From: Lama glama
Taxonomy: Eukaryota
Direction: 5' to 3'
Length of the DNA: 64,000 nucleotides
NCBI GenBank assembly: GCA_028534125.1
Contig: CM052816.1
Span: 17,114,001-17,178,000 of the forward strand
Shown here one piece after another: positions 37,901 to 64,000 of the stretch. The notes below the pieces were generated by a model that saw nothing but the letters and a program-made list of their open reading frames with translations, was not told the origin of the DNA and searched no databases. Positions within the stretch are counted from its first letter, which is position 1; each line of letters starts with the position of its first letter. The translations under genes and the position numbers were made by a program.

Positions 37901-40422
37901 CAAAAGTCAGTTATGCTGTGAATAGACTTAAAGTTGGTTCTTTCTTCACCAGGCACAGAAGTGTCCAAAAATAGAGATGACATAACTTTGTTTAAGTAAT
38001 ACATATGTGGGTTTACCATCCCAAAAGCCACTAAAGAAAAGAATTTTTTGTTTAAAACCTCAGTTTATCAGGATTAAAAATGTACTTCTAATTTGTTCCC
38101 CATTTTGTTCTGAAAATTCAACTTTATTTTTCTAATTATAAAAGTAGTAATAAAAAACTAAAATAGAAATACACAAAACAGGAAGAAGTTTCCTGTAATC
38201 CCACTGTTAAGAGTTAGGTTTGGCATATATTCTTCAGAGTTTTCTAAATGCATACACATTTATAAAGAAAATAACTTTATTTTTACAAAAATGAGGTCAC
38301 TTTATACATATGACTCTGCAAACTGGCTTTTCTCCAATATTGAGAGTAGGTAATTTAATGAGTAGTTAAGGTTATGAACTTTAAATTCAAACAAATAATG
38401 GTTTGAGTCCCATCATAGGGATATCTCCTACCTCACAGTTTTGTTATGAGGAGTGAGTGAGATAATTCATGTGGAACATTTAAAACTTATGGTTTAGCAC
38501 ATGATAAATTAAAAAGAATATTAATATTCTTTCTTACTCTCTCTGGGTATGGGTGGATGGGTTTTAGAGCAGGGTGTAGATTAAATGTGTATTTTTCTTT
38601 GGCTAGAAGCCCTTTATTTTTATAAATAATACATCTTCACTATCACTCCATGACACATGAGCCTATGCCACTTGTTAATATTGAATATTATTTTACTGTA
38701 TGTACCAAAATATTAAACAAACCCTCGGATATTTAAGTTTTCAATTCTTCCAAATTATATAAAGGTGTTTTTAAAAAAAAGTCCGTGAATAATGAGATTA
38801 TGAATGATTTTAAAATATTTTTTCATTCCCCTATGTTCTGTAATAAGCATTTAAAAACCAACCTAAGATATCTTAATTAATAAGATTGTCTGTAGCTGTC
38901 TTTTTAATCAAGATCTGACTCAAGCTCATCCCTGTAATACTAATTAGTTAACAGATACGTAACTGCCACTATGTTTGCTGTACCAACGGAAGTCTGGCCA
39001 CCGAGCTTACATCTAATGTATGTTGGGTGCAGTAAAGACAAAATGCTCTTTAGTAACCGATTAAGTCAATGCCCACAGATAGGAGGAATGCAAGCTGAGA
39101 TATTTTCTGGTCTTCCCTAAAGATCTGCATTGATTCATACCTTCTGTTACTCAGTACTAACATATTTTACTATTAACTCTGCAACAGGCCAGGGAAAAGA
39201 ATAAAGCAGACACCAAGATTAACTTCTTTAGCCTCATTTGTAGTTTGACCTATGAAACTAAAGTTAAGCTAATGTACCTGTATGGCTGTAAAAGAAATCA
39301 AGAATTGGCAACTCAAGGGAATAATTATATTCAAGACAGAACTGCCAATGTTGACAATGAAAGCTTTTTATTACATCTGTGACCTAAAGTTTTGCCCCTT
39401 AAGAAATGGAAATAGTGTTAGTCTAAATGAATTTAAGATAATGTCTAAAATGTGTCACTTTTTGAGAGGTTTCAGAAGTCTGAAAGCCTATGGTTTTATA
39501 AAGTCTCTCTGTTTTACTTTTCATCTCCACTTAACTTCTTAGTTGAAACAGCGTCTTCATCTACATGTGTACTTACATATACATAAGTTTATTAAGAAAA
39601 TAAAGTAGAGTAACAACTCCTGAAGTGTAGTACTAACTTCTTCCTTTCTGTAATGCAGCTGTTTCGGAGTTCCTATGAGATATAAAACAAAATTTTTCCT
39701 TACTTTATTCTTAATTCATAATGTATATAAATAACGATGGAGAAACACCGGCGCTTTTTAGCTGTTTACACTGTGTGAAGGAAAGTTCCAATGGCTTCTG
39801 GTTACTGTTTAACTCTCAGTTTTATGGGGGAGGAATAATTACTAACATATCCCATGGTGACAGTTGGCAATCATTTTATGGCTGTATACTAATGAATTTT
39901 AGAACACGGTTATTTCCTCACCAGTCTTGCTTTAAATTTAAAGAGAAAAATACAAAGCAAACAACCCCCCCACCCCCCGTCTCCATCTATGCCTAAACGT
40001 TTTCTCCTTGCGGCAACACTGCTTCTCGGGATGGCTGGCTCCTGCGGGATGGGGGAAAAAGAAGTCGGCCTGGGGTTCTGCCAAGGCCATGACTCCCTAC
40101 ATCAACAAAGGCCTTCCAAGGCCAGCCTAGCGAAAGTCATTGTACAGCAAGTGACAGCACCCAGCTCCAGCTTCGGGCAAGGGGCGAGATGTCCCCTCAG
40201 GGCTTCAGTTTTCCTGTCTGTGAAATGGGACCACCTTCCCTCGCCGCTTCTCAAGGGGAAGCTGTCAGAGGTAACTGTACTGGAAGTCATCTCTCTCATA
40301 TGGATACAAATGGGACTACAGAACTCCCTGCAAGGTATTTGGTATTGTCAGACCGGCCAAGCCCCGCCCACTCCCTAGGGACACCCCTCACCGCCTCTGT
40401 GCCACCTGGACGCCTCAGCCAT
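10926..40422 (-). CDS. PKD2L2: Polycystin-2-like 2 (TRPP channel), complete, 14 coding exons, 624 aa
   Basis: Exons in transcript order: 40422-40392 ([10 protein letters not shown]), 39672-39577, 38030-37897, 36397-36141, 33833-33612, 30922-30694, 29273-29103, 28814-28633, 23611-23491, 22443-22342, 20649-20585, 19999-19945, 11564-11452, 11022-10926 (TGA). They sum to 1875 nt, all GT-AG with matching phases. TRPP motifs present: [53 protein letters not shown]. Confidence 0.96.
13690..18300 (-). mobile_element. Old degraded L1 (L1M) with nested insertions
   Basis: T-rich antisense L1 ORF2 phrases across the interval. The sequence resumes seamlessly after the nested element at 16298. Confidence 0.7.
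14518..16287 (-). mobile_element. Younger 5'-truncated L1 (about 1.8 kb) nested in the older L1
   Basis: Well-preserved 3' UTR and ORF2 end (ttccatagtggctgcaccaatttaca, ttgcatttccctgatgattagtgatgttgag). TSD AGTGATTTTT at 14508-14517 / 16288-16297. Confidence 0.85.
18300..19420 (-). mobile_element. L1MC-like 3' UTR fragment
   Basis: Phrases ccctgaatacttcagtgtatatttcct...aaggacatt, ccagacttggccagtgggagcccc and ggtatttggaaaccaagatct. Confidence 0.65.
21190..21810 (-). mobile_element. L2 LINE fragment
   Basis: Purine-rich antisense L2 phrases (tttaacagggaagtgatgtgatc, gtgttgccattaacaga). Confidence 0.5.
21905..22090 (-). mobile_element. Lineage-type L1 3' terminal fragment
   Basis: ttttttattgaagtata...tttacagtgtgtcaatttctggtg...gaatatagttccctgtgctataca. 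Shorter related tails occur at about 30511-30570 and 43078-43118. Confidence 0.7.
25570..27060 (+). mobile_element. L1 fragments (5'/ORF1 remnant followed by an ORF2 end and 3' UTR)
   Basis: ORF1-like [15 protein letters not shown] and gcagatttgaacaggcagaagaa, then gaaatgcaaatcaaaaccacaatg, atatgatccagcaattccac and an A-rich end. Confidence 0.8.
28028..28150 (+). mobile_element. tRNA-derived SINE with internal deletion
   Basis: GGGGGAGGGTAATGGCTCAGTGG...GGTCCTGCATTCAATCCCC with the AAACCTAATTA-CCCC tail shared with the 549 copy, flanked by CCTGAA repeats. Confidence 0.85.
32395..33120. mobile_element. MaLR (MLT1-like) LTR fragments
   Basis: Phrases ctgacattccactgaccaaagaaagtcacatgg and ttggggccatttttgcaa. 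Subfamily not determined. Confidence 0.5.
32783..32915 (-). mobile_element. tRNA-derived SINE inserted in a MaLR-like LTR
   Basis: Reverse copy with TSD AAGAGA(A/G)CAAGTTTT. Confidence 0.85.
37500..37519. repeat. (CA)n microsatellite
   Basis: About 10 CA units read directly. Confidence 0.8.
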
Positions 40423-42235: not shown

Positions 42236-45200
42236 TTAAAGTTCTTCACTTTCATAGAGTCCAGATTGAGCTGCCAGACGCTGAAACTCTCCCTCAGGGT
42301 TAAATGCTTGTTTCACATTCAGACCTCTCCCATTAAGTGCTAAATATTTGCTGAAAGTTGGTCGGACACGTAACTGCTTAGGAGCTGGAAGAGTTTGGTT
42401 TGGACGGGCTGAAATAGATCAAATAAAAATTAATTTAGAAAATCTGTTCTAAACAAATGAGTTGCACTAGGTAGTGGTTATCAGATAGGAGAAGGAAGAA
42501 AAACTGATTATGTATGCGGAGAATCCCTCAGATTTTATACTATGCTGAGATTTGTGTTTCTTATTAAGTTCTGGTTAAGTTCTCTGTACACTTGATATAA
42601 CACTTTTAACAGTGTGACATACCTGTAACATCTAATCTCGTGTTACATGTGGTCACTCCAGCTTCATTAACTGCAGACACAGTATACCACCCAGCATCTT
42701 TCTTGTTTACATCTTTTATCAGTAAAGTAACTCTTCCAGAGTTATCATGATATAAACTGAAAAAAAGCAAAAAGTCAAAGTATAGGAATTACCTGTGAGA
42801 ATTTATTTATGATGCCTCTGACCTTCAGAGTCAGACTAATAAGAGGAAAAAAAAAGCATTTGGAATTTCTGAAGCTGTATCTGTTAAGTGACAAATAGCT
42901 CTTGATTTTCTTGAATTAAAAATCCACCCCCAGTCTTACTTATATCATCTGTTTCCTTGAGCCATCTTCTTTTATTGTTAGTAAAAAGTTAAATCCTAGC
43001 CTACTTGGGCCCTTAAATTTCTGATTAGTGGGATCTGGCTTAATGAGGTTTGTTATATTTCTATATATATGAATTTAAAGTGAAATATAGTTGATTTACA
43101 ATATTGTGTTAGTTTCATCTACATGTTTTTAAAATTAGACAAATTGAGGTCACAAATGCATGCCCTTTTTAATATATTTCAAAGTATAACTGGATTCACC
43201 CAAGTAAATTATAGTTAAGTCTAGAAATACTTATCCTACCTTATTCGATCAGTGTTGAAGTGTACCATTTCATTATTTCTTTTCCAGAAAAGCTTTGGTG
43301 GAGGTATAGCAGAGATTTGGCATTCTAGCTTCACTGAGTCTCCCTCAAAAACTTTTTTACTCTGTGGTTTGTAGATGAACATTGGTGCTCTCCTGTGTTC
43401 TTTTGCTACATATTAATAAAAAATTCACATATTTGAAATACAAAAATATTAAGTCAAACCAAGGTATTATGAAATTTGTATGTTGAGATAAAAGTTTTAA
43501 AAAGTAGTAACAAATAGTATTGGAAGCTTTATATTTCAGCTTTACTTAAAATAACATATAATACTCTTGTGTATTGTATACTTTCTAGAGTTCTAAAACA
43601 GTAATGTAATGATACACTGAATTTATAACCATGTTTCATTCAAAGAATTTAAATCATATTCTCATTATCTCAGCTATAGGGAGGGAGCATGAGTGGTGGA
43701 AAGAGTACCAACAGTTTGGGTTCAAATTCTCTGTTTACCCTACCAGCTGTGACAAATAGGGAAAAATTTTGTTTAGTTTTTCTGAGGCTCAAGTTTTATC
43801 TCTTGTAAAATGATACCCAAGTAATGGTGACTGCTGTGCTCACCACAGCACAAAATTATTGTGAGGATCAGTTGTGATAATGAATGAAGAAGCACTTTGT
43901 AAACTATAAAATAATATACAAATGTCAGTAATTATTGTGTCTTTTCTTCAAATAGCTGAGCAAAAAGAAGAACTGATACTATAATACTATAACCTTAGCT
44001 TTTCTAAGGAGATTATAAGGAAATTGGATGGATGCCTGCAAAGGTCAATTTCAGCTCTAACATTATAGTATTTCTGAAGCTATTGGCACGAAAAGGATTT
44101 GCCCTAAACTTAATCACTTGAATTGTGTGTGTGTTTTTTAAAATTCCCAGATCACTAGTTTTTCCCTTAAACTGAGATCCCTTATTATACCATAGAATAA
44201 TCTTAATGATTTTTCATTGATCTGGGTAGAATACAAACTTAGGATTGTCCATCCTTTAACAGTGAATTATGGCAAAATATCTCTTATGTAATATCATGGT
44301 TTAAGTCACTACAAATGTGATATATTTAAAGCACTTAAATTGTAATATTTTAATACAGGACATCAGTTTTATGAGAACTGCCTTAGTAAAGACAAACTTG
44401 AGACATGAGTTTTGCCATACTTGTTTTCTAAAGCGAGTAGGCACGTTTTGTTGTCGTGATTATAGATTAGTTTCCTACTAAAGAGAACATAGCCTAAGGC
44501 TAAAATTTGGCATTTATTCTTCAGTTTTGAACTATGCATGATTATAACAATTCTGTAAAAATGTGAGTCACATTGATTATTTTAGGGTATAGACCAGAGA
44601 AATGTTTAGACTAACATTTTTCATTTTAGGGCCCTTTAATCACATCTACAAATATCATATATGTAGAAATATATCTAGAATATACTACCTTCTTTGGTCA
44701 GTCTGAAATTGTACCTTTATTTTTCTTCCAGAAAAGCTTTGGTGGTAGATCTGTTATTCTGGTTTCACTGAGTTTCCCTCAAGAACACCGACCCCTACAC
44801 ACCATGGCTTTTACTTAAAATTGGTGTTCTAATGGGTTGTATAGTATAGACATTCACCTTAAATATAAAATCCTTTGGACTTTTCTTTTTTAACACTTTT
44901 TTTTTAATTCTACAGGATTTTAAGGTGCTCTCTCATATCTCTTTGAAAGCTTACCCAGGACGTCCAGCTGCACAGTAAAGGTGGCTTCTCCTGCTCTATT
45001 CTTGGCAACACATGCATAAGCCCCTGCATCTGAAGTTCTGACCACTTCAAAGATGAGTGAATGAAAACCCTTCTCAGACACTATCATTTTGTGAAAATCA
45101 TCTGATTGAACTGGTCTTCCATTGAGATACCATGACACATCAGGAGCTGGGAGTCCACTCACCTAAAAATGAAAACCCAAGGAGATGATAGAATTTTAAA

Positions 45201-48200
45201 TTACAGATTACTGGAACCCATTTGTCCATTTATGAATTTTAACAATTCAGTATCTGAGTGAAAATGCAAAGCAAGAACTTAAAAGGTATTTTCTTTCAAT
45301 AATTTTTAACAAAATAGTAGAAATTAAAACTTAGAATTAATATAATATTTTCAGACTACCTCAAACCATGTCTACCTCTTTGGTATACAACCTCAGATCT
45401 CTTAATTACCATATTAAAGACATTAATTAATGTTATATTGGGCTCCACAAGGAATATGGAAGTCATATGGCTTTTCTGGCTAATGATAACTGCAAATGAA
45501 GTCCCAGAGGCACATGTATATGAGGCTTGCTGATTTAAAGAATAACCTTTCCAAAACAGAGTGTTCTTGAGCTGTAGTTTTGGTGTATAAATGGTAGTTC
45601 AAGTGTTTTTGTATATGTCTTAACAATGAAATCCGTACACTGACTTTCATTCATAAGGAATCTGGAAAAACATTTTATAAGAAAAATTTCTCCAAAATGA
45701 GGATAATAAAAATGTAGGTGTTTATAAAAAGTTATTTTAGCCTGAAGAATTCTTCTAGGCCGAGAGGAGGGTCACTTAAATTTCTTAAAGGATAAGGATT
45801 AAAGAAACATTCTACCTTATAAATCCTGATATGATAGCTTTACTTATATAGAGTATTTATTAGGTGGTAGGCACTGTTGTGAGTACTGTGTACCTGCTAA
45901 CTCAGTTAATCCTCACACAGCTTTATGAAGTAGGTCCATTTGTCATTCCCATTTTACAGGTGAGACAGAAGCATAGAGATGTTAAATGACTTGTCTAAGG
46001 TTACAAAGCTGGAAAGGGGCAAAGCCAGGATTCTAACCCAGATAAACTTAGCTCCAGAGTTTTCTGTTCTTATCCATAATGTTTGTCAAGCTGTGTAGCA
46101 AGCTATAAAGAGGAGGAGGAGTTTTTTTTCAAAACTTAGTATCTCGCTGTTAATTTTTCTCCAGTATTTTTGAACTTTTTTCTTACTTTGAAGTCCATTC
46201 TGCAGAATCTTCCTTCTTCAATTGACATGTTCTCTGGCACTTGGATGAAACGAGGCGGGTAAAATTTCTCCTGGATTGCATCTTGATCGTTCACGTCTCC
46301 CCTTGAAGATGATCTACTTCTACAAAAATATTTTAATAGTGACTATGCAGGAGAGTTGTCATTGCTCTTCCTTTCACACAAATACAGTTTAGCCATCAAA
46401 CTTGAAACCTCAGCATCTATACTATTTGATCTGATAGTGTCATAACAATGGCATGAGGCTGCAGAGCTATATTTAGCTGTGGCATATTTGAGGATTATTA
46501 GAAATAGTAGCAATTTAGAAACATCTGGTACAAATTATACATCCTTGTTTCTTTTGTACAGTGCCATGAATTGATAAAGAAACTGATCTCTTAAAATGCA
46601 GAGTAGTACCCCGTGGACAGTTCTTGTCACATGCAAAGATTGTATAATTAGAATTGAGTTTCCACTGTCATGAGAAAGTTGTTCAACATGGAAACATGGT
46701 CCTGGCTTATTTGACCAAAACATTTAAAAAAATTTTCTCTGAGATAGTTCTGATAATTAACAGATAAATATTTTGATCATCAACTTGGACATTAGAAAAT
46801 TTACATTGTTTTTTATAAAAGGTATGTAGGAAGGTTGACGGTTCTATAAATACAATGTTTTTTAAGCTGAAAACATTTTAGGTAGCGAAATATATATTTC
46901 TTTAAAATTAAAAAAAGAATTTTACCTTACTTGTGATGTAGGAACTTGGAGTCGAGCATGTTCTGAATGATGCTGCTTGAAATTAAAACAAAGTGATAAA
47001 ATAAACATGCTGTTGTTAGCTTGAAATGGAGCAGAATTAAGTAGTTGTAGTTGAAAGGAACGTTTTCTCTGTTGGCTGTATTTGTACTGTCATGGTTAGT
47101 TCTGCTTAGTTAGCTGTTAAGCATTTAAAATATAGTGCTCTAACCTTCTAGTACTCTAGCAAGAAATCACCAGAATTGAGACTTTTCAGCAGATATGATT
47201 TATGAAAAGTAGCTTGACTTTGAATTGACAGTGCCTCATTTTTTAGATGACTATTTTATGACAAAAGATGGTGAGTCCCTTGGTGTATTTGAAATGGGAG
47301 CACATAGTACAGATTGTCCTTTGGTAAAACAGGAATAGTCATGAAGTCACTTGTGTTGGCAGTAGATACAGGGTATTATGCCTACTGCTCAAAAGTGGCA
47401 CCAACAGCAGTAAACACATATTAGACTGGAAAATACTTTTCATTTTAGCTCATGGCAGTAAATCCAGTGGACACTGTGGAAGCTATGTGTAGAGCTATGA
47501 AAAGCCTTTGAAAAACTATTAATTACTTCCTGCTTAATAAGTGTATATTTAATTTAAGCAACTGTCTTTTAGGATTTATATCTGAGCACCAGAAAATTAT
47601 TTCTATTTGAGAATAAAATCAGGAATTGATGAATATTATTATAGAATTAATTATTTAGTTCCTATTTTGCATATTTCATTGTGCTTGGCATAGTGAGAGA
47701 TAGAAGTGGAAAATATAGTCCCTACCCAGATGTCTGAAAAATGGCTGTATAGCAACACAGCATATCAGTACAAATAATTTATTTTGGGATTAATATGTTT
47801 AATGTATTTTGTAATTTTAAAACAAAATTCTTACAACTATAACAATTTTTGGCTAGCCTTAAGTTTCTTTAAGCAAAATGTCAAAACAATTCAGTGATCA
47901 AACAAATCAGTGAGTTTTTTGGTAAAGAATAAGAATAATCCACTTAAACTCAAAATATCTATATTAAGTTTTTGATTTTTGTCCTATAGTAATTTGAGTA
48001 TGTATGTATTCATATTCATAGATGTGATATGTCAGTTACATGTAGTTTGATGACATTTTGTATTTAAGTAGAATGTTTGAAGTGTACCCAAAAAATGTAA
48101 GACTTTTCTGATTTCATAATATGTTTTGCTACTCTACCTTTTCTTGGTATCGTCACCTTTGTTTTAAAGTTCTTAAAGAGTAAATGAGAAAAACAATACG

Positions 48201-51200
48201 TCTTTGCCCTTGAAATCATACACTTTGAATTTATAAGATAAACCATCATCAACATAATATTACTTTGGATTATTTCTACTAACAGGGCTAGGTTTGTGTC
48301 TTACTCTTGCTGTAATCTCCTGTACCAACTCCAGAACCCAGCACACAGTAGGTGCTTCATATAAATAAGTTGAATAAATGAATGTATGAACTGTTTAGTA
48401 GCCAAAAGAGATTTAAATTCTGTTTTCAGATTCTAGTTACTTGTTCTACTAGCAAGTCTGCTCCATTTTTTTTAGGTCTACTCAGATTTAACAGAAGCAA
48501 AATCTTTTTTTTCAGCTTCCTATACTTTAAGGGATTGGAATTCTTGAATGCTCATCCCTTTGGTTCTCTTTGGTTCCCAGTTTCTTGTGGACTTTTTGAA
48601 GGAATGAGAGGTAACTACAGAAGGAAGGCGGAAGGCGCAAGACCAGTTCAGTCTGCCTCTCCAGCCGTACATTTTTCTTCGAAGTTAAGTTGTTAAAATG
48701 CAGTTGGTCAGGAACAAGCCTGTGGGATATTCACTTTATGTCCTCCATACAGTTAGTTAATTCCTTCTTGGAAAGGATGCTTTTGTTAATCCTAGAGCCA
48801 TTACTCATAAGTTTTTTGTTGTTTGTTTTGTTTAAGTTTTAATAAGAAACATTTTAAAATACAGGAATATGACAGAAGGAACTGGATGTTTTTATTAGTA
48901 CACGAGAATATTTTAAAACGTTGCAATGATTAACAGCTTATGAGAAAAGGTTATAATTACTTTGGTTTAGAGTTTTAACTTCTTTCCTGTTAAAAATTTA
49001 CAACTCATTAATTCTCTGTCTGTGCAGACATTGTAGAAAAAGTCTGAGGTCTAACTGACCCCTAAATGTTCAGTTGAAGAGTGACACCGTTAGCCTTCTG
49101 CTGTTTTGTCTTTGTAACATTTCATACGCAGATACTAGAACCACCAGAAAATGGGATAACATTAAAAATTTTATGTATGTATTCAGCCTATTATGGCCTC
49201 TTTGTTTTATATCTAATGGAGCATGGAATTGATTGACTTTTGCTTCAAATGCTATTTATAAGATTTGGGAAAGCAGGAATTTAAAAATCACACAAAAGAA
49301 AAGTGCTCCAGTTAGATAATTTACCTGTGGTGAATCTTGTGCCTCACTGTCATTTTGAGCTTGAAACACAGCAGCTGCATTCTGTGGTCCTAGTAATCTG
49401 CGAGCCATCTTCTCCTCATATGTTAGCCGCTTTAATGAAATAAGTCATAAAGGAGACAGTAGTGAGATTTAATAAAAGTTATTTGTATAGCTTTACCCTA
49501 AAACCACCAAGAATTATACCAAAGAAGTATACTTCTGTCTATTGAATGATACTGTGTTTTAAAAAAATCATTTTATTTCATTCAAAACATTTCCTTTCAT
49601 TCTAGTACCACTTCCCTCACCTGTAATATTTGTTGTTTTCTTTTGTCTCCTAGGAAAGGCAAGCATAATCACCTGCAAACAAAGCTCTTCCAAATAAAGG
49701 GAAATTCTTTTACTTCCTCCTTGTTTTGCATGTTCCTGTTGGCTCTGTCTTTGAATATAGTACTGTATGTCCTCACATTCAGAAATAACTTTTATTAAAT
49801 GAACACAATATTTAATTTACTAACTTCTGAGTAAAAGCAGTGCAACTGGTATGTTAAAGGTATTTGGATTAAAGGCATATAGTACTGTTTCAAAGATCAG
49901 TGGCTAATATAATGTGCATACTAAGAATTATAGCTATCTTTCTGTTTATAATGTACACCAAAGTACCTGAAGAAGTCAGGTTGACAGCATTTAGTTAGTT
50001 GATCATCATACATAGTTTATGGGAGGGTAAAGCTTAAAGGAAAATTTTACTTAAATCATTCATACTGATTTTTTTTCATTTGCTTCAGTCTTTTACTAAT
50101 GAAAACCAAGAGGGGATTTCATGCAGAGAAATATGGAATAGGGTCCACATATTCCTTCCTTTTAGATGATTGTATCCCTTTTTGATTGTATGGACATAGA
50201 TCTGTGAGACAGAAATAACTTTCTTATTGAAATTAGATTTTATACTTTTATTGGCTTTTTGTACAAAATAAACATCTTGCTCACTTGGTTTCCATTATGA
50301 AGAAGGCTGTCCTTGCATTTTAGCTTTCTCTCCAAATCTTGAATCAGAGCTTCTTTTGATCCTTGTATTTCATGGTCAGGAGTCCTTGGTGTGGGCTTAG
50401 CATTTGCACTTTGGGATGGCTTAGCAGTTACAGGTTGGCCAACTGAGGGTTGTTGATAGCTTTAAAAAGAAAAAAAGATTTAAAAAAAAGATCTTTAAAG
50501 TAAGATGTGTGTCTAAAATAGAATTTGCCACATTTTTTCAGTCACCTTTAGGTAGGTTGACTTTACCACTTAGAACTGCTGGTGTTATTAAAACACCAGT
50601 TGCCCTAATAACAGTCAAGAAAGATTTTATAAGAATGGTTACCAGCTGGGTTTTTTGTTTGTTTGTTTGTTTTTGTCTTGGCAAATGAAAATTAAGTGGC
50701 AGGAGAAGCAATTTAGACATAAGGAGGATGTTGAAGATTGTCCCTAAAGAAGTGGGAGTAAGTCTAGTTACTAGCAGCTTGACAGCTGTCCCAGGCTTCC
50801 AGTTGAATTTCATAAGTTTGATTTATGGGTGGATAGTAAGCAGTGGTGTTCTGGAACCGACTCATATGGGTTCAAGAGAGCTGATTTTTAGCATCTCCTC
50901 CCAGCTCCCTTTGATCTCATGTTGATAGTTTGAAATTGGTGGTGATGGGAGTATCTACAGGGAAACTGATAAACACCACACACAATCATGGCTCCTTTCT
51001 CCAGAGCTAATTGTTAAACAATTACCAGCATAACCACTGGTATTTAGTGGTTTGAGTGGAGTCTATAGTTTGCATAGTCTCTCATTTTCCTCCTAATTTC
51101 CAATTCCTGTCAGTTTCATATTTAGATAATCCAAGTGTGGCACTGTATAACAACTACTGCAGTAATGACGGTGTCTTCAACATTGCTAAAGTGATTTTTA

Positions 51201-54200: not shown

Positions 54201-54726
54201 TTGGTTAAGGTGTTCTAGGAGAAATGGAATGAGACCTGGAGGTCACATTGCCTTTTTCAATTGTGAAGAATGAAGTACATAACCCGTCCCCCCACCCCAT
54301 ACAAGCTCACTATATATAGTTATATTCTTACTTATATATACATATGTACATATTTTAAAAGCTTACTTACTTGGAGTCCACCGTGGAGGAGATTTTACTG
54401 CTGCTGTAATCAGGCTGTGATGGTAATATGGAGCTGAGAAAGCTGGCTGGGGACTGGTTGTAAGTGGCTGTAACCCTTTGGCCTGGGATGGAGCCAGCAA
54501 GCTGCTGGGGAGAAGCAGGGAAAGCAGAGGAGGACATAGTGATGTGAGAGCTCATTGTTGAGGAGGCAGAAAATCTTTGCTCTGTGCACTGGCGGGGCTG
54601 GATGACAATGGAAGACTGTTTGGTCTGGCTAGAGTAGCTGGAGGTTTCCGGTCCTGGAGGCTGCAGTCTGGAGCCACATGGATTTTGGGGTTGGATGAAG
54701 TGTTTTGGACGTTCGTAGTTAAACAT
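42236..54726 (-). CDS. MYOT: Myotilin, canonical short isoform, 9 coding exons, 499 aa
   Basis: Exons: 54726-54371 (MFNYERPKHFIQ...), 50459-50285, 49429-49325, 46975-46926, 46319-46187, 45162-44955, 43405-43240, 42756-42623, 42408-42236 (…GLYESEEL*). They sum to 1500 nt, all GT-AG and in phase. Ser-rich N-terminus, two C-terminal I-set Ig domains and the ESEEL tail are present. Confidence 0.97.
43680..43935 (+). mobile_element. MIR SINE
   Basis: tttgggttcaaattct...ccagctgtgac...tctgaggctcaagtttt...ttgtgaggat...agcacttt. Confidence 0.65.
44685..44832 (-). pseudogene. Decayed intronic duplicate of MYOT exon 8
   Basis: Collinear similarity to 43236-43392, including an identical 20-mer TTCCAGAAAAGCTTTGGTGG (44726-44745 vs 43282-43301), TTCACTGAGT and the donor-side CTACCTT. 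Indels break the frame. Confidence 0.75.
45830..46075 (-). mobile_element. MIR SINE
   Basis: MIR core cccattttacaggtgaga...agagatgttaaatgacttgtctaaggttaca...ccaggattctaaccca. Similar MIR fragments lie at about 2650-2800, 3650-3830 and 63760-63920. Confidence 0.7.
50841..51039. mobile_element. hAT-like non-autonomous DNA transposon (MITE)
   Basis: Imperfect terminal inverted repeats CAGTGGTGTTCTGG ... CCAGCATAACCACTG. Family assignment is tentative. Confidence 0.55.
53199..53277. mobile_element. MADE2-like mini mariner element
   Basis: About 80 bp with imperfect TIRs TAGGCCAAACC...GGTTCAACCTA flanked by TA. Confidence 0.55.
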
Positions 54727-54928
54727 GCTTAGCTGGTTTATGGAAGTTGCAGGCAACTTATTATTTGCTCCTGGAGGGGTAGGGTCCTGAATCTGGGGCT
54801 GCAAGCCTGGAATTACAGAAGGTTGCAGTGAATCAGAAGCAACCTTGGTCTGTCCCTCCTTGTTGAGATCCTGGGAATATTGTGCTCCTGGCTTTGATGG
54901 AGTGGACTTCTCTTGAAGAATATTGTTC
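54727..54928 (-). CDS. MYOT: In-frame open 5' part of MYOT exon 2 (UTR in the short isoform, coding in the predicted long isoform)
   Basis: No stop from the acceptor (ttttctccttttgaag|G at 54928) to the canonical ATG. Translation: NNILQEKSTPSKPGAQYSQDLNKEGQTKVASDSLQPSVIPGLQPQIQDPTPPGANNKLPATSINQLS-M. An in-frame TGA lies just inside the intron. Confidence 0.72.
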
Positions 54929-57310
54929 CTTCAAAAGGAGAAAATGATTCAGTTACAATATCTTTGTAAAAAACAGTGCTGTTTATTTAATACCTTTAGG
55001 AGTTTATGTGCTTTTTTTTTTTTTTTTTGAGCTGATGTGCTTTGAAGGTCACCTCAAGGTGGAACTTCCCTGGCTTCTAGACTTCCCATTCCTTTTTCTG
55101 TTGCCTTTGCACAATGACTTTTCCCTTGAGAATAAGAAAAAAGGATTCATTAGTGTGTGTTTGCCTCTGGGTGATTCTTAAAGCATGCCAGGGGCTTCAA
55201 GATACAGGAACACAAATTCGAGTTTGCCAAGTGGTTATTTATGACAAGAAAATCTGTGATGTTGCTCAGTGTGATAATTTTATGGTTTCATGTTTAGCTT
55301 TTGCCCAGAGGCTACAGTTTCATTAACTACAGAGACTTCATGATTTAAAATTATTAGCAGTTAAATATATAATATGTCAGCTTCCATCCAGTAGAGATTC
55401 TTCCCCTTGCTCATCAGAATCAATGAACAGCTGTTCTGATACACCAATTAATTCTTGCCCTGGTGATCTGTGATGAATGACACAGTGAATTAAGGGGAGC
55501 AATATGCCTCTTTTGTAAAGAACATTACATTAATATCCATATTTGCTCCTTCACCCTTTTACAATTTCACAAGTTTGAGTAAACATCTATACTTCACTGT
55601 TGTCATGTGATATTCTCTTAGTTTGACTTATTATTTTTGCCTGTTTAATATGTATTTTAGATTAATTCTGAAATTGTTTTGGTTCCTATATTTTCTTTTG
55701 AAACAGCAAGCAGGATGTACAGAAGGAAGTAAGGCAGCTATGATAAGTTAGCCTGTACTTTACCAAGAAAAGATGAGTGTCATTTCCTTCCTTAGTTCTG
55801 CATCGATGCTCCTGACTTCCTACAGTTGATCCCCATTTGTCCTTAGATGAATCATTTGCCACTAAAATCAACCTTGAAGGAATATATTTGCCTCTGATTT
55901 CTTCCATTAGTATGGTAAATCTGAGCAGGACTAGATGTAGACATTACATACTAAGACTAGCCCCATAAATTACTGTAATGTTGATTCTGTCTTTATTTAA
56001 AATATCAGGTAATTTAGTACAAAATACATGTAGTTTGTTTCATACAGTATAAACTAACACTGAGATGATGATAAAATCAAACTTTTAAGTAACAAAATTA
56101 CTCAAATTTTGTCATCAGTGAAGCAAAATTTTATAATTAATTTCCTATCTTGAGGAAAGTATCATTTTTAATAAAGAATTTCCAAACCAAACAACTTCAT
56201 CCTAAGGTTGTGCATGTAGTTTAGAGTTAAATTAAAATTAGCAGTTTTAGGAAAGAACAAAAATACAACTAAATAGCCAAAGAGAAAGTTCTATTGAAAA
56301 AGGCACTTAAAAAGTCATACATTCCTTATTTTCGAGTTTATGAACACAAGCACATTCAACTAGAGTGCATTTTAGTAATTAACTATATTAGGCCTTAAAT
56401 TATTGGAGAAAAACATCCAGAAGGAGGCTTTAATTAGATATTCTTAAGAAAAAAAAGACTCTATTTCAAGGCAAGTAGTTTTTTAGTTATGGGTTTATTT
56501 ATTCCATTGCAGAATTGAATCCAGAGTTTGGTTTTAAGTTACTTTTTGGGCAGGCAGATTATTCAGATTCATTTCAAACAGTAAGGAATAAACTGTTTAA
56601 CAAATACCCGGTAGGTGTTTTTCAAAAAGTTCCCTATTTTTCTTTATGTGTATTTTTAGAACGTCAGCTACCTTGTACATTTTGGTATCAGCTTGTGTAG
56701 TTAGCAATTACTATTAATTTAAAAATTAATTAAAAATATTTTCTTTAAAAAGTTTCATTTTATTCATATCACAACAAAATTTTATACGGATGTTTATACA
56801 GGTAGCTCTGAAAGGCTTTTCTTCATGTTTGTAATTACTGTTCAATAATCAAGTCTATAATCAATTCTATTATATGACAGTATTGTTTTATTCCAAATAA
56901 TGTTAAATAAAATTCAAAGAGTTTACTAATAAAATACTGTTAAGTCTTCTATTTAGAAAACGCTTAACCTTTTTCTCCTATCTCTTAATATAGCTCAGGC
57001 TTGTATTAAAAAACAGGGTATTTTGAAGCTGTAGGACATCACCACAATTACAGTCAGACCAAGTGTCCCTTTTCAAAGAAAAATGATTTTAAAATAATGA
57101 CATAGTGATCTTTCCTTCTACCCTTTCTATAATTCCTTCGAGTTTCAGTGGAATAATTGGTCACATTCTCTTCAAATCTTTGTATAATACCATTATGATG
57201 TGGTTTTCAAACTTTTTATCTGAAGATCCCCTTTTACATATTCCTCTGATTTGGACAAAAAAGCCAAAAACAAAACCCTAAACTGTAGCAGGAATAAATA
57301 AGGGACTTAC

Positions 57311-57460
57311 CCGAGTTCCAGAGGGTGCCAGTTGGGTTTAACCTACTACTAAAGGGAAGGAAGAGGCATCCTCTTCCCTCACAGGCTAGTCTAGTAGCTC
57401 TGTGCTTAGTATTATAGCACCACTGACTTTTATCAGCTGCCAAACAGTGACATCTGATGT
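57311..57460 (-). promoter_or_regulatory. MYOT: Probable non-coding exon 1 and proximal promoter of short MYOT
   Basis: Strong donor CTCGG|gtaagt at 57311/57310. On - there is a TATA-like CTATAAT at about 57411-57417, a GATAA at about 57430 and E-boxes CAGCTG (57434-57439) and CATCTG (57451-57456), as typical of muscle promoters. The TSS is not determined. Confidence 0.6.
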
Positions 57461-60400
57461 GCTTGCCTGTCCATCTACCTATGCTGGCATGTCAAAGTAA
57501 GAGTCCATGATCTAAACAATATCTCAGATGTCTTAGTGATATTTAAGGAGTGGGATTACTTGAGCTTCTCTTACAGGGCTCTTTATTTTAGATGCGAATT
57601 TTGATTATGAGTTTAGCAAGCTCATGTAGGGAGAAGGGCAGTGAATTGGGAAATGGGAAGAAGTGTAAAGAAAACTCAGTTTCTTTTTTGTGGTGGGGAT
57701 TTTGAATTTTCCCTGTTGAAGAAAGGACTAAAAGGGAACTAGTGTTCTAAGACTGACATTCTACCCAGTAAGACCTCCAGAAACAAACCCAGTGATGGAT
57801 GGGCTCCAGATTGATTTGTATTGGATAGTTCATCTGAAGGCCGTGTTTTTTTCTCTTGCCAAATAGGAGTCGAGGTAGAGTGGGGTTCATGCAGTTTGTT
57901 GCAAGAGAAAGAGTGTGTCTGGGCAAAGGCAGGAGAGCAGGGTGAAGGAGTCATGTCACTGGGAAGGTGGGGTAGTGGAAAAAAATGATTTGGTTTCTTT
58001 AGCAAGTTCTCTGAATGAGATTTGCCTCCTTGACCTTATACTTTTATTCTAAAAGAGCTTTGAAACACTTAAGAAACTACTAAACAAACAGTCTATACAA
58101 TTAGGGCTCTGTACTGGTAAACTTCTTTATCTCCTTTGCTCCTAACAGTTACATAGTTTTGTTTCTCTTTTCATTCAGGAGACCTTGGTATTTAGGTTTC
58201 CATTTTTACGTAGGGAAGCAAATAATTACAGAGGAAGAAACATTCAGATCAACAAGAGATGGTGGAAAGGGGTAGGTAACTTGAGAATCAGTCCCATTGA
58301 GTGGAATTCTCCCTATTTAATGGCTTCAGCTTTGATATGCTTTTGTTGTTTAAAGCATAACTATTTATTCCCCTCCCTCCTGGGTACCCCAGTCCTGGTG
58401 TAATTACTGTGTACATTAGGGTCCAACAAATCAGTGTTTGAGCACATATGAGCCATTTAAAATTCTTCACAGCTGACCATTCTTCCTTTGGCATTCAGAG
58501 AAGGTTTGATAACTGCCACCTGGGCATGCAGCCATTCCTTAGCAGAAAAGACATACTTGGCTTGATGAGTAGGTGTTTGTCTACAAAGTCTTATTTCAGG
58601 AATCTGCTAAAATGTTTCTCCACATCTGCTTACTGTTATTTCACATTCCATTAATAGGGACAAAGCCTTTCAATCCAAATTAGAGAGACTTAAAATGTAA
58701 ATGCAAGTGACAATAACAATAGCAAGAATAACCGGCACATATAGCATTTACTATGAGTCAGGCCCTATTCTAGGCACTTTAAATGTCGTATATGTGACTG
58801 TTATTTGGTTCTTCCCAAGAACAGGGTTTGAGATATACCTTACCAGCCAAGTAGGGAAGATGCCTAGGACAAATTTAAATTCCCAATTTTGCATTGGGCA
58901 GATTCTAAATGTTCTATAGTTGAGGAAAAACTTTAGTTTTATTTAGTCTTTATCCTTTAAGCTTAGCCTCTTCTTTCCCACGGGCCTTTGTAAGCTACAA
59001 TGTCCATCACAGAGTGGTAGCTGCATGGTACGTCTAGGCTAAGGTTCTTGCTACAATTAGGGGATCAAGGGATGGTTCAGTAGGAAAGGTAAGTAAGTAA
59101 GATCTTTTTTTATGACATCATTCTCAGAAGTTAAGGATATATATATTCAGTAATCTACTATGAATCTTTTTTATACCTTTTATTGTTTGGTTTGCTTTTT
59201 TGAAATGATATTTTGTGTTTCTTCACAAATATGGCTGTTTGAATGGCTTAGTTGCTTATTTGAGAAGAATCATCCTAAAACTGAAAGAATTATTAGGATA
59301 TGTGAACCCTATTCCAGCCCGCTCCCAAAGGCAACTTTTTCCATTTCTTTCTCTAAATTATGAGTACAGGCCTCTGGTAAATCATTCTAATGCCTAACGA
59401 AATGTAGGTAACTTCCTACTATCTCAGATGTTTCCTACTGAAACATTTCCTGCTGCATATCCAGGGAATTCCTTCTTGTCCCATCATCAGTAGAAGGGTA
59501 GCTATTTTAACTGTCACTCACTAGTCCCTTCTTCATACATAGTCCTTGTATTTTAAAATGTGAAGTGTATAGCAGTTGTGAAAGTGGTACTGTGAGCATC
59601 TTCTAAAGTCAGAGGCCAGATATGTCTGTTGACGGTAATTTCTGCCGTATTGACTGAGAAGGAAACTATTATATTGAGTATGAAAGGACTAAACAGAGAA
59701 GAATGTTTTATTTTTCAGGTTATGCTTGGTTCACTACGATTACTGAAGTTCTGCATAGACATATAGCAAAAGGGAATCCCACTGTAGCACTCATAGTTTG
59801 AAATATCCATTCTTGCACTTGACTCAATCATATTCTTCTCAAGCAAGAAATAATAATGGACACTCCACTGGGTTTGGAGTCAAACAGTAAAAATGATAAC
59901 ATTAATTTGGTTAATGTTCTACAACTTTCTAGACACATTAACCTTTTTATTATCTATTTTGGAGACCTAAGTGTGAGTGCCCACTCTACCACATATTTGC
60001 TGTGTAACCTTAGACAAGTTGCTTAAACTCTCTGAACTGTAATAATTAACTGAAAAATAACTTTAATAATTAATAAAAAATAAAAAAAACTGTTTTACTA
60101 ACCTAAATCAGGTTGCTGAGAGACTCAAATGAAACAGGAAATCATATAATGGACTACTATGTGGCATAATATATCTCTTCAACTAGGTTAAATTTTTTTC
60201 TGAGGGAGAGACTCTTTATTACTTATCTTGCCTAGGACAGTGTAGCTCATAGTAGACATTCAGTTAAAAACTTCTTAAACTTTCATGGAACTTTTACTGG
60301 ATAATTTCCCCCACAAATGATTTTGTTAATGAAAATGAAGGTAATTGCATAGAAAAGATACTATATTGTAAATTTAGGGTCTTTTTAAGTCCTCAATGCT

Positions 60401-61746
60401 CACTGCTAAACATAGGTACTCATGGAGGAAAATTTTGGATATGAGTGTTGGCTATTTTCCCAAGGCAAGTGTAGTGCAGAAATTGACAAAACTCATAGAA
60501 TGTTCTTAATAAATGTCTGTTGAATAAATTGCAGTCTTACTTATTTTCCCACACACCCATTCTTCCTTGACCCCACAAGGAGTCTTTATTTGTAGGGGTA
60601 GTTACTTCTTAGGCAACTAGAGATCCCATAAGCTAAAGGGGTTCCAGGGGACCAACTGAGAAATCACTGTCATGGGATGTTATTGGAGATACACTGATCC
60701 TGATAAAAAAGCAATGCAGTGAAGTAATAGCTACTATTTTTGAATTCCTGCTGTGTACTTCACATACATTGTTCTAGGTCTGTTAGTCTCCCAAGTCCAA
60801 ACTTTCCCTTTCTGCCTTCATTGCAAGAAACATTGAAGAAGTACCTATCCCAAGGTCGTGGAAGCATGAGGAACCAGCCCTCAATAATATGAGCCAGTCA
60901 TCTACAGTTTTTGTCATTTGTAGCATAAGGAACATCAGATAGATGACCTTTGATTCTGTCCATCTCTAACTTGATGTATTTCTCTCACTTAATAAACCCA
61001 AATAGTATTCACAAAATCTAAAAAGAGATTCTTGTATCTTCTTATTTTGTTACTACAGAGGCTACATTTAGTTGTCCTAGGTAAGTGGTCAAGAAGACCG
61101 GTTAAGTTTTATTAAAGGTATTGAGCCTAAAGGTAACTTTAGGCTGGTGAAATATTTAGTGGATTGTGTTAGATAAAAGAAAAAATTTAAATGACTTTTT
61201 AAGTATCAACTTTTAGGTTTTAAAAAAAAATCAGTATTTTCGTTTGTGGTTTGTGTTTGGGGAGTAGGGATGGTGGTGGATGGTGTTTTAAACATAGCCT
61301 GATTGGCAGAGTCACTCTACTGTATTATCTTTCCATTTATACGTTTGTTCTCTAAATGCAAGGACAATTCTGTCTATATTCTAAGACTGACTAAGAAAAA
61401 AACCTCTATCACAAAATGTTTTATATATTTATATTGAGGTAACACACTGAATTCTATTTTGGGAAAAGATTCCACTTCTTCAAAATCTTTTGCCATTTCA
61501 TCATTGCTGATTTTTGTTTTCAGTAAGTCTCTGTATCAAACCCTTAAATGTGGATCTAAGCACATGACTTACTATTTCGGCCCTGGTAAAATGCATGATG
61601 GAATGTAATAGAGAAATGACAGAAATAAAGTGCTTCTTCTCAGAATGCGAGCTCTCTGAGGCAGGAGCTTTGTCCTGTTCACTGTTCTATCTATAGAACC
61701 AAGAGCAATTGTTGAATGAGCGAATGTTAGGTCTGTCTACCCTTAC

Positions 61747-61990
61747 CATTGTGGTGGTAGCTCACAGGAATTTTCATTGATGGTGCAAAAATCTTCCTTT
61801 GGAACGTTGATCTCATGTTCAGTGTGACTGGCTGTTTCAGGAAGAGTTGGCATAAGGTTTATTGAGGTATTGTCTGGAGTTTTGTCCTTTGTGTAGCTGT
61901 CACTGCTCCAGGGAAAGGAGGCCAGTTTTGGGGAAAATTTCCTCCTGTGTAACTTTGGAGAACTCTCTGATTTCTCCACTTCTTTTCCTT
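61747..61990 (-). CDS. MYOT: Predicted upstream MYOT linker exon (244 nt, phase 1 to 2)
   Basis: Acceptor attttccag|AA and donor CAATG|gtaagg. Open frame (E)GKEVEKSESSPKLHRRK...NENSCELPPQ(W). The terminal TG joins the first G of exon 2 to give Trp in frame. Confidence 0.72.
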
Positions 61991-62088
61991 CTGGAAAATA
62001 TAATTAGTCACCAGGTCAGATAGAACTAGAGAATATTCTTCTTGGCTCAGAGGTGAATTTGAGCAGGGCGATCCTGAGGAATAATTAC

Positions 62089-62208
62089 CTGGGGAAACAG
62101 AGAGTCTTGCTGTGGAGACTGCAGTCCCAGCCTCATTTTCTGCAATACACTTAAATTCCCCAGAGTCTTCAGGAAATGCTTCTGTGATAATCAAGGTACA
62201 GACTTCCT
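62089..62208 (-). CDS. MYOT: Predicted upstream MYOT exon encoding the C-terminal half of an I-set Ig domain
   Basis: Acceptor tcccctttccag|AG and donor CCAG|gtaatt, 120 nt, phase 1-1. Encodes (E)EVCTLIITEAFPEDSGEFKCIAENEAGTAVSTARLSVSP, with the I-set L-x-I...D-x-G-x-(Y/F)-x-C-x-A-x-N-x-x-G pattern. Closely resembles the recalled palladin/myopalladin Ig2 (EEICTLVIAE...EDxGxFTCxAxNxYG). Confidence 0.85.
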
Positions 62209-63020
62209 CTGGAAAGGGGAGAGATTCAACTTGACCAGAGTACTTGAATGCCCCATATTAACAAACAAACAGTGTGGGAGGATGTCAGGGAGAGTAGGCA
62301 CTAGGAATAAATAGGGTATTCCTGAGATTTAAAAAAAAAAATCCATCTGATTAGATTTTTGTCATTGAGTGGGCTCATGAAGATAAATCTTAAAAATACA
62401 ACCTAAAACAATCCCAGCATGGTGCCTATCACCTGCTTCTTAGGCACATCTGTCTTCTCTACTTGGCTATGAGTTTCTTGAAAGCAGGGATTATACTTTA
62501 TTCCTCGGCTTGCATATTTCTGTAAGCTTGAGGGGTTAGCACAAAGGACCATAGAAAGATTTTTCTGAACTGACCTAAAAATTATCATTGCCATGGTAAT
62601 TAGACCTAATGTTAGTACAATGATGGCCACTGTGTGATGGGCAGAACACCTACATTCAGTGTGGATGTTTGATGTCAGGACACTTCCTTACTGCCTCTGT
62701 GTATAGCTCACAAGGCACCAATAATACACCAAGTGGAATTAGAGGAAGAACGCATGCCCTGAGGGCAGAGGCTTCTCAGGGCCAAGAATGGAATGTGGCC
62801 GTACCCTGTCTATAGTAAATACATGTTGAATGAATGAATGAATGAACAAATACACTGATAAATTCCAATTATCTTGCTGCTTCTGTTGTGTCAGTTAAAG
62901 AGTTGGCATAAGGTAGCCTCAAAACTCCTCCTGAAGGCAAAAGTAATGTAGGAGACAAAGTCTTCTAATGCTATATTTGATTTAATTATTATTATCAAGA
63001 TGCTGAAAAATTGTGCTTAC

Positions 63021-63044
63021 CAGGAATGGGTGATAAACAAGCTT
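63021..63044 (-). CDS. MYOT: Predicted 24-nt microexon within the upstream Ig domain
   Basis: Long polypyrimidine tract ending ttttatctttcag, then AAGCTTGTTTATCACCCATTCCTG, then gtaagc. Phase 1-1, encodes xACLSPIP and joins in frame to EEVCTL. Confidence 0.68.
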
Positions 63045-64000
63045 CTGAAAGATAAAAGAAGAGAATAGAGAGAGAATTTAAATGATGACAATTTAGTTGG
63101 GAGAAGCGACCATGTATATATGAGAAATAACTTGAAGCAAATACAATGTTGACTGTAATTTTGAGTCAGATGATAAATTCTGTAGAAACTCAGAAAAGGT
63201 GCATAATAGAATGAACGCTTGGCAGGGTGCTAGAAAAACTGTGTTTCAGTTCTGTTCTACCATTAAATTGCTCTGTGATTTTGTAAAAATTACTTCTCTG
63301 GGCCTTAGTTCTTCATGTCTAACACGAAGGTAAGACTATATAACATCTCTTCTCTGAGTGAGAACTGTTGCTGAAACACTAATCCTAAGGAGGTCTCTTT
63401 CTCCTGAGAAAATCCTTCTCTTTTAATCTAATTAAAATTGAATATTACATTATAAAAATACTATAGAATTGCTGTAAAAAAATACACAAAAGGTTAATAG
63501 TCTTCTCTGGGTGGTGAGAATATTAGTAATTTTATATTTATTCTTTTTTATAATATATTTTTCTAGATTTATTATAATAAATTTATATTCCTTTAGTTTC
63601 AGAAAATACAAGTAATGTAATTTTGAAAGCAAATTCATATTGTGTAATAGATATTTCTTCCTAAATGTGATGATGTGGAAATGTTCAGTTGTTTTGAATT
63701 AATATTTAAGTGGATATATTTTCTTTGCTTGGTGTAAGAACTATCTTGGTCTTGAACCTAGGCTGCAGTGTTTATTAGCTTTGTGACCTTTGGCAAGGTG
63801 AAATTTCTAATTTCAGTTTGCTTGCTTATAAAATGGAATTGATAACACATACCTCAAAATATTGATGTGAGGATGAAAAATTGTTTATATTTAAACTCAG
63901 TGTTTAGCATGAGGTAGGTCATCATACTTGTTACCCTTTTCCAAATTAATTATTTGGTAGGAAGCTGATACAACAAAGTATTTAGAAAGTTATGCATCAG

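Follow-up and report, generated by a model that had tools for sequence, protein, structure and literature searches.

Myotilin is a Z-disc protein, and mutations in it cause myofibrillar myopathy. The described systems closest to the locus treated here are palladin and myopalladin. Myopalladin (gene MYPN) is a Z-disc protein with five immunoglobulin (Ig) domains, and for palladin, PMC7333403 reports separate Palld promoters for the forms of 90, 140, and 200 kDa. Myotilin itself appears in PMC5479843 and PMC8062120 as the smallest protein in its family, with two Ig domains and a free N-terminus. Here, we analyzed a stretch of 64,000 nucleotides (nt) from Lama glama (assembly GCA_028534125.1, contig CM052816.1, positions 17,114,001 to 17,178,000; below, the window), which holds the 5' half of the myotilin gene MYOT on the minus strand (contig C1 of the same assembly). 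Intact coding exons for a further Ig domain were found upstream of the exon with the canonical start codon. They probably represent a real and ancient coding module of the myotilin locus, which would resemble the palladin locus in its nested promoters and would give several predicted products.

No description of a long or three-Ig myotilin was found in the literature searched, which lay outside the subscription journals, and the same search found no experimental characterization of the gene models named 'palladin-like' or 'myotilin isoform X'. The names 'palladin-like' and 'myopalladin-like' occur in six papers, as far as could be seen always as entries in gene lists. The module is thus known to annotation pipelines and appears to be undescribed in print.

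Exons of the Upstream Module and Their Reading Frame

The first-pass annotation of the window, made from its letters, had proposed that four minus-strand segments form a coding chain that leads into the canonical myotilin start. All four segments were found where they had been placed, each preceded by AG and followed by GT; they chain in one open frame into the canonical start codon, and the peptide strings quoted for them were reproduced. Mini-exon A (63021..63044, minus strand, 24 nt, AG/GT borders) codes for the terminal part of strand D and for the enlarged D–E loop of the upstream Ig domain. Exon B (62089..62208, minus strand, 120 nt) encodes strands E–G, that is, the C-terminal half of this I-set domain. 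It is followed by exon C (61747..61990, minus strand, 244 nt), the open frame of which, between AG/GT borders, gives a post-Ig linker of 81 codons predicted to be disordered. The last segment, separated from exon C by an intron of 6.8 kb, is the 5' part of exon 2, here called the leader (54727..54928, minus strand); its 67 codons continue the exon C frame without a stop as far as the canonical ATG. When exons A, B, and C are joined to exon 2, only one frame stays free of stops as far as the ATG at 54726-54724, and the other two frames contain many stops. In the leader these two frames have 3 and 4 stops; its open frame starts exactly at the acceptor, and a TGA lies just upstream, in the intron. 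The chain is far beyond chance, because the same exons occur in dozens of vertebrates.

The module had been expected to start beyond position 64000. Four further intact coding exons with AG/GT borders, which include its own ATG, were indeed found there on the same strand, 325-3303 bases past the window end. They comprise an exon of 142 nt for the first half of the Ig domain (I-set profile positions 7-50), an exon of 63 nt that itself begins with ATG, an exon of 118 nt with AG/GT borders, and, about 3.3 kb past the window end, the short upstream ATG exon, which ends in ATG plus five bases and has a GTAAGT donor. An in-frame stop precedes this ATG by 17 codons. In all, the module is made up of seven coding exons, of which four are located past the window end and three (A, B, and C) inside. 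Encoded in it are a disordered stretch of about 55 residues, a complete I-set Ig domain, and the disordered linker. Starting at the upstream ATG, the full chain is open over 425 codons as far as the end of exon 2, and 307 of these precede the canonical Met. The predicted sizes are approximately 805 residues (~90 kDa) for the long protein and 240 for a product ending after exon C. The conserved ATG exon of this genome fits the models of pig, cat, and armadillo. The opening exon of the hybrid sheep model P0001 was considered as a coding exon here and rejected, as it has two in-frame stops in this genome. This segment lies about 14 kb past the window end (L010:4135-4284, minus strand) and is similar to the first 47 residues of sheep P0001; it represents either a leader exon outside the coding sequence or a start that was mis-predicted in P0001.

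The canonical coding part of exon 2 (54371..54726, minus strand) holds the myotilin ATG and the Ser-rich region. The whole exon has 558 nt, a multiple of 3, and ends at 54371. The remaining myotilin exons, from exon 3 (which starts at 50459) to the last one, occupy 42239..50459 on the minus strand and include the two C-terminal Ig domains. Exon 2 and the later exons were mapped, from 54927 down to 42239, by tblastn with the long myotilin of armadillo, P0005. A run of 17 A was seen at about 55010-55030 (minus strand), some 90 bases upstream of the exon 2 acceptor, and is probably a simple slippage run.

The length of mini-exon A is a multiple of 3, which keeps the frame when it is skipped, as it is in some models (e.g., sheep P0001 and ground squirrel P0100); its residues are conserved from teleosts to mammals in an alignment of 18 stand-alone orthologues (alignment A1). 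The donor of exon C is a good GTAAG site, compatible in phase with both exon 2 and exon 3, and its possible fates are splicing to exon 2 (phase 2), splicing to exon 3, and read-through. The join of exon C to exon 3 is in frame in the window (TG + C at 50459). If the donor stays unspliced, a TAA stop (61743..61745, minus strand) is reached at once (TGG TAA), which would give a stand-alone product of about 240 residues.

The Upstream Ig Domain

The Pfam I-set profile PF07679 (90 profile positions, cut-off 23.7 bits) was used for the examination of the two Ig halves. In this genome the first half matched profile positions 7-50 with 30.8 bits, and exon B matched positions 56-90 of 90 with 33.7 bits (E 3.7e-8). 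In the buffalo orthologue P0071 the match covered all positions, 1-90 of 90, with 66.5 bits (E 2.2e-18). The fold was predicted with AlphaFold2 and alignment A1 for this buffalo orthologue, not for the joined sequence of the present animal. The model has one nine-strand Ig domain at residues 58-158, with a predicted local distance difference test (pLDDT) score of 92-97, and its flanks, including the linker, have a pLDDT below 50. In this model the residues from the mini-exon lie at the end of strand D and in the loop that leads to strand E.

The conservation of the separate parts was counted as identical over aligned residues between this genome and 11 long models of other mammals. The first half of the Ig domain had 34-46 of 47 residues identical and the second half (exon B) 32-38 of 39-40, compared with 36-65 of 75-81 in the linker of exon C, 27-60 of 60-68 in the exon 2 leader, and 95-111 of 117-118 in the canonical part of exon 2. 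The Ig halves were thus 72-98% identical to those of other mammals versus 44-81% for the linker. Within alignment A1, which extends from teleosts to mammals, the core residues of the Ig domain are invariant or nearly so. In its conservation the leader thus behaves like the disordered linker.

Homology to Ig2 of Palladin and Myopalladin

The profile of alignment A1 was run against 1.84 billion representative proteins. The ranking was topped by giant titin-like proteins, the scores of which add up over many Ig domains, and the rows with five matched stretches were therefore used. Besides the giants, the profile matched five-Ig proteins of 1347-1621 residues, which a cluster look-up showed to be named palladin or myopalladin (caecilian, pike, coelacanth, arapaima, knifefish, lamprey, and hagfish). 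The best stretch in these targets joined profile positions 1 to ~170 with target residues ~372-662. In all eight palladin and myopalladin proteins scored domain by domain, Ig2 obtained 124-199 bits versus 6-64 bits for the other Ig domains. BLASTP gave 44-46% identity to Ig2 over 163-175 collinear residues, including the segment before the Ig domain and the D–E insertion, and 32-35% identity to Ig1 with a gap at this insertion; in the module the collinear alignments begin with residue 1, and in the three paralogues with residues 392, 372, and 9. For myopalladin, the identity of Ig2 to the buffalo orthologue was 46% over 169 residues, including the loop insertion. In the printed alignments, Ig2 of both palladin and myopalladin carries the insertion of 7-8 residues between strands D and E, which corresponds to the mini-exon here; Ig1 and the titin Ig domains lack it.

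A FastTree tree of all 61 domain hits (101 columns) placed the upstream Ig domains of myotilin (8) and the Ig2 domains (8) in one clade; its Shimodaira–Hasegawa-like support of 0.87 is moderate, since the columns had been fitted to a profile that was itself derived from the module of myotilin. The Ig1 clade stood apart with a support of 1.0, the Ig1 and Ig3 clades contained no myotilin members, and the classical Ig domains of myotilin grouped with Ig4 and Ig5. In two paralogous loci of this genome the matching Ig domain is split into two exons at the same residues. No structure of Ig2 of palladin or myopalladin was found in a search of PDB, where the best matches were titin Ig domains and the palladin entries 2DM2 and 2LQR reached only ~29-33 bits.

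This evidence of homology is decisive: the upstream module is the counterpart of Ig2 in palladin and myopalladin and of the stretch that precedes this domain. The first-pass annotation had referred to N-terminal Ig1/Ig2 in these proteins: the scores, BLASTP, and the tree agree with Ig2 and speak against Ig1. Its view of the exons as an ancestral N-terminal Ig module of myotilin, coding and in frame with exon 2, agrees with the intact exons and with the homology. The FNYARPKQF-like motif that it had described as internal in PALLD and MYPN could also be traced. A motif of the type FNY.RPK.FI lies after Ig2 and before the last Ig pair in seven of the eight palladin and myopalladin proteins checked, and no match was obtained in the eighth, knifefish myopalladin P0347. 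The motif is likewise internal in all five long myotilins with the exon 2 region (gar, lungfish, axolotl, a teleost, and armadillo), and in this genome it follows the module after about 150 residues.

The correspondence extends to the order of the parts. The palladin form with four Ig domains that starts at Ig2 (the '140-kDa' type, for which PALLD uses an internal promoter) shares with long myotilin a K/T/S-rich segment before the Ig domain and Ig2 with its large D–E loop, followed by a disordered linker, by the FNY.RPK.FI motif with a Ser/Pro-rich region behind it, and by the last Ig pair. The start of a coelacanth palladin isoform (1012 residues, four Ig domains) coincides with the position of the upstream ATG here, and we infer that this model is the '140-kDa' protein. 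In contrast to this palladin form, which has Ig3, no counterpart of Ig3 was found between the motif and the last Ig pair, and the long myotilin models have three I-set domains only, not four. Myopalladin differs further in having Ig1, Ig3, and a long N-terminal region besides. Since the module matches Ig2 and the stretch before it, long myotilin would have the layout of four-Ig palladin starting at Ig2, minus Ig3. Classical myotilin (about 498 residues, Ser-rich N-terminus) comes from the same gene, from exon 2 onward, and in the long form it would be preceded by 307 further residues with a third Ig domain.

On contig C105730 a paralogous Ig domain, split by an intron at the same place, was found on the same strand as a tandem Ig pair similar to that of myotilin, some 21 kb upstream of this pair. 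The locus is a candidate for MYPN, an assignment based only on how it resembles the coelacanth sequence. Both strands of this contig (G000:C105730, ~134-162 kb and ~622-650 kb) show matches to the myopalladin-like paralogue in mirror image, at equal distances from either end, which look like an inverted duplicate made by the assembly.

Gene Models in Other Vertebrates

The first-pass annotation had left undecided whether automated gene models include the module; those of many species do. The public models are unreviewed and automatic, and their calls of one gene or two disagree. A search with the exon 2 leader found six proteins that carry it, including "myotilin isoform X" of armadillo and cat. 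With the Ig region of the armadillo model as the query, 64 proteins of 421-1343 residues were retrieved, which span mammals, birds, tuatara, lizards, gharial, turtles, sharks, rays, gar, bowfin, lungfish, and teleosts. Models of the "myotilin isoform X" type that contain the module have 764-826 residues; among them, long mammalian models of 764-807 residues exist for a cattle hybrid, buffalo, bighorn sheep, reindeer, naked mole-rat, guinea pig, degu, kangaroo rat, tenrec, armadillo, and cat. In models of gar, lungfish, axolotl, and one teleost, a single protein combines the module with the two C-terminal Ig domains and has the FNYERP(K/R)HF motif internally.

Other models divide the same exons differently. 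In many mammals separate "palladin-like" or "myopalladin-like" models of 239-241 residues end at the last residues of exon C. One of these 'palladin-like' models, buffalo P0071, is 73-89% identical, exon by exon, to the module of this genome, with the same borders and the same end after exon C. In the Ensembl/UniProt models of pig (620-621 residues) exon C is joined to exon 3. Models of shark, tuatara, bustard, and gharial (569-612 residues) are without the FNYERPKHF motif, and lizard models fall into two size classes, ~616-658 and 805-822 residues. In P0016, P0018, P0021, and P0045 (bird, tuatara, gharial, and catshark) the upstream Ig domain is present and the FNYERPKHF and Ser-rich region, which is exon 2 in mammals, is absent; a three-Ig form without exon 2 is therefore predicted widely outside mammals. 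The pipelines agree that the exons are coding and differ on what the exons join. Accordingly, the long myotilin proposed by the first-pass annotation is predicted in many models, but it is only one of at least three predicted outputs of the locus.

Two further matches concern the surroundings of the gene and its copies. A fused turtle 'Myotilin' model, P0043, has a PKD-channel part that is matched by exons at 22342-38031 of the window (minus strand). The gene directly downstream of MYOT, on the same strand, is therefore polycystin-like, and P0043 is a fusion of two genes. An intronless match to residues 367-796 of armadillo myotilin, with 50% identity and 23 in-frame stops, was found about 23 Mb away on the same contig (G000:C1:40539112-40540350, plus strand; L001), and is most likely an old processed MYOT pseudogene.

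Evidence from RNA

For the stretch 61700-62260, exons B and C of which make up 0.65 of the length, four RNA-Seq runs of one study contained 0.63-0.66 of the sampled words, and runs that are probably genomic DNA contained 1.00 of the same words. These shares, taken from reads unaligned to the locus, weakly suggest that the exons only were present. A Logan contig of 1255 bases encodes a product of 262 residues, and the cluster of this product holds macaque models of the same length. The contig would be a spliced transcript, judging by its short length against exons spread over kilobases rather than by its own letters. A rat muscle RNA-seq study (PMC6610545) lists "PALLDL1, palladin-like 1" among the regulated genes; this gene may be the same unit.

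Alternative Explanations

Several observations weigh against a coding module that is spliced into myotilin. In the long models of the 11 other mammals the exon 2 leader is coding and all its gaps keep the frame; since such models are built in frame, the open leader does not count as independent evidence. Its 67 codons are 45-88% identical between mammals, and by our own estimate a single stop-free frame of 67 codons is expected by chance with a probability of roughly 4%. In pig, marmot, ground squirrels, oryx, buffalo, and cats, NCBI places a 'palladin-like' gene beside a normal myotilin of 497-499 residues, so the junction of linker and exon 2 may be rare or absent there. The models of Old World monkeys have 61-68% identity to marmot, are without the mini-exon residues, and have the conserved DSG motif changed to DSE, which suggests relaxed constraint in some lineages (catarrhine primates). 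A function of the extra Ig domain, such as the new Z-disc interactions proposed by the first-pass annotation, is putative. As a separate observation, the N-terminus differs as well in P0136, P0135, and the members of their cluster (Old World monkeys).

Such pairs of a 'palladin-like' gene and a normal myotilin would fit a separate small gene in mammals, with a product of about 240 residues that ends at the TAA or in another small 3' exon; the long models would then be artefacts of read-through or homology. The many models of 239-241 residues that end at exon C in species with a myotilin of normal length agree with this, as do the read-through stop TGG TAA of the window, the models of zebra, dog, and pangolin with other short 3' ends, and the Logan contig with its 262-residue product, taken as spliced. 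AATAAA signals also lie downstream, the first at 61113. However, AATAAA and ATTAAA are common in this AT-rich intron (11 in 3.7 kb), and the signal at 61113 therefore says little. The good exon C donor, in phase with exons 2 and 3, and the leader that is open exactly from its acceptor speak against a separate gene. Moreover, gar, lungfish, axolotl, and a teleost have one-protein models, and the separation would therefore be derived. On balance we consider a separate mammalian gene unlikely, though it deserves serious attention.

It is more improbable still that the locus makes mainly a long form without exon 2, in which the linker exon is spliced to exon 3 to give a three-Ig protein of about 620 residues lacking the Ser-rich FNYERPKHF region. 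Exactly this join occurs in the pig models, the motif-free models of shark, tuatara, bustard, and gharial are of the same kind, and in this genome the frame permits it, exon 2 having 558 nt; yet exon 2 is included in the models of other mammals, and lizards show both size classes. Finally, the exons might be a decaying relic, unused and unselected in this lineage. The degraded look of the Old World monkey versions points that way, and no hominoid, mouse, or rat row stands among the matches listed (120 of 159 in one list), a weak absence; we claim no loss in mouse, rat, or apes, and a rat symbol 'palladin-like 1' exists. All eight exons from the upstream ATG exon to exon 2 nevertheless keep their splice sites, the 307 codons are free of stops and frameshifts, the Ig halves are better conserved than the linker, and the residues of the Ig core vary little or not at all between fish and mammals. 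Decay is thus very improbable.

Proposed Organization of the Locus and Its Meaning

We therefore prefer the reading of the exons as an ancient coding module of MYOT. It is built on observed exons, frames, splice signals, homology, and conservation; transcripts in this animal, the tissues that would make them, and the function of the extra Ig domain are what we infer from these. By likeness to Palld, MYOT would have nested promoters and would behave like palladin. Transcripts beginning with the Ig module would come from an upstream promoter. When the linker exon is spliced to exon 2, these would encode a three-Ig myotilin of about 805 residues, in which the usual start Met and FNYERPKHF are internal. 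Exon 2 might instead be skipped and the linker exon spliced to exon 3, also in frame, or the transcript might end after the linker exon and encode a single-Ig protein of about 240 residues. An internal promoter would give the classical two-Ig myotilin of about 498 residues.

A bolder form of this proposal is put forward tentatively, as a possibility. Myotilin would be ancestrally, and in most vertebrates still, a three-Ig protein (a palladin that starts at Ig2 and is without Ig3), and the form of 498 residues would be the product of the internal promoter only. The long or the single-Ig form would be a functional protein of muscle or of the reproductive tract, and it may have been overlooked as degraded or absent in primates, and perhaps in rodents, which are used for nearly all work on myotilin.

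The claim is a modest one, as the sequences are already public as predictions and for this animal, too, the long form is a prediction. The 'palladin-like' loci that adjoin MYOT are the 5' module of myotilin or a part split off from it, not copies of palladin, and the role of a single-Ig product of about 240 residues becomes a question. If the proposal is true, animal models with and without the module may differ in how their results are to be read. If the long form is made, the Ser-rich region and FNYERPKHF would become internal and a third, titin-like Ig domain would be added; myotilin would then no longer be the odd short member of its family but a palladin-type gene with nested starts.

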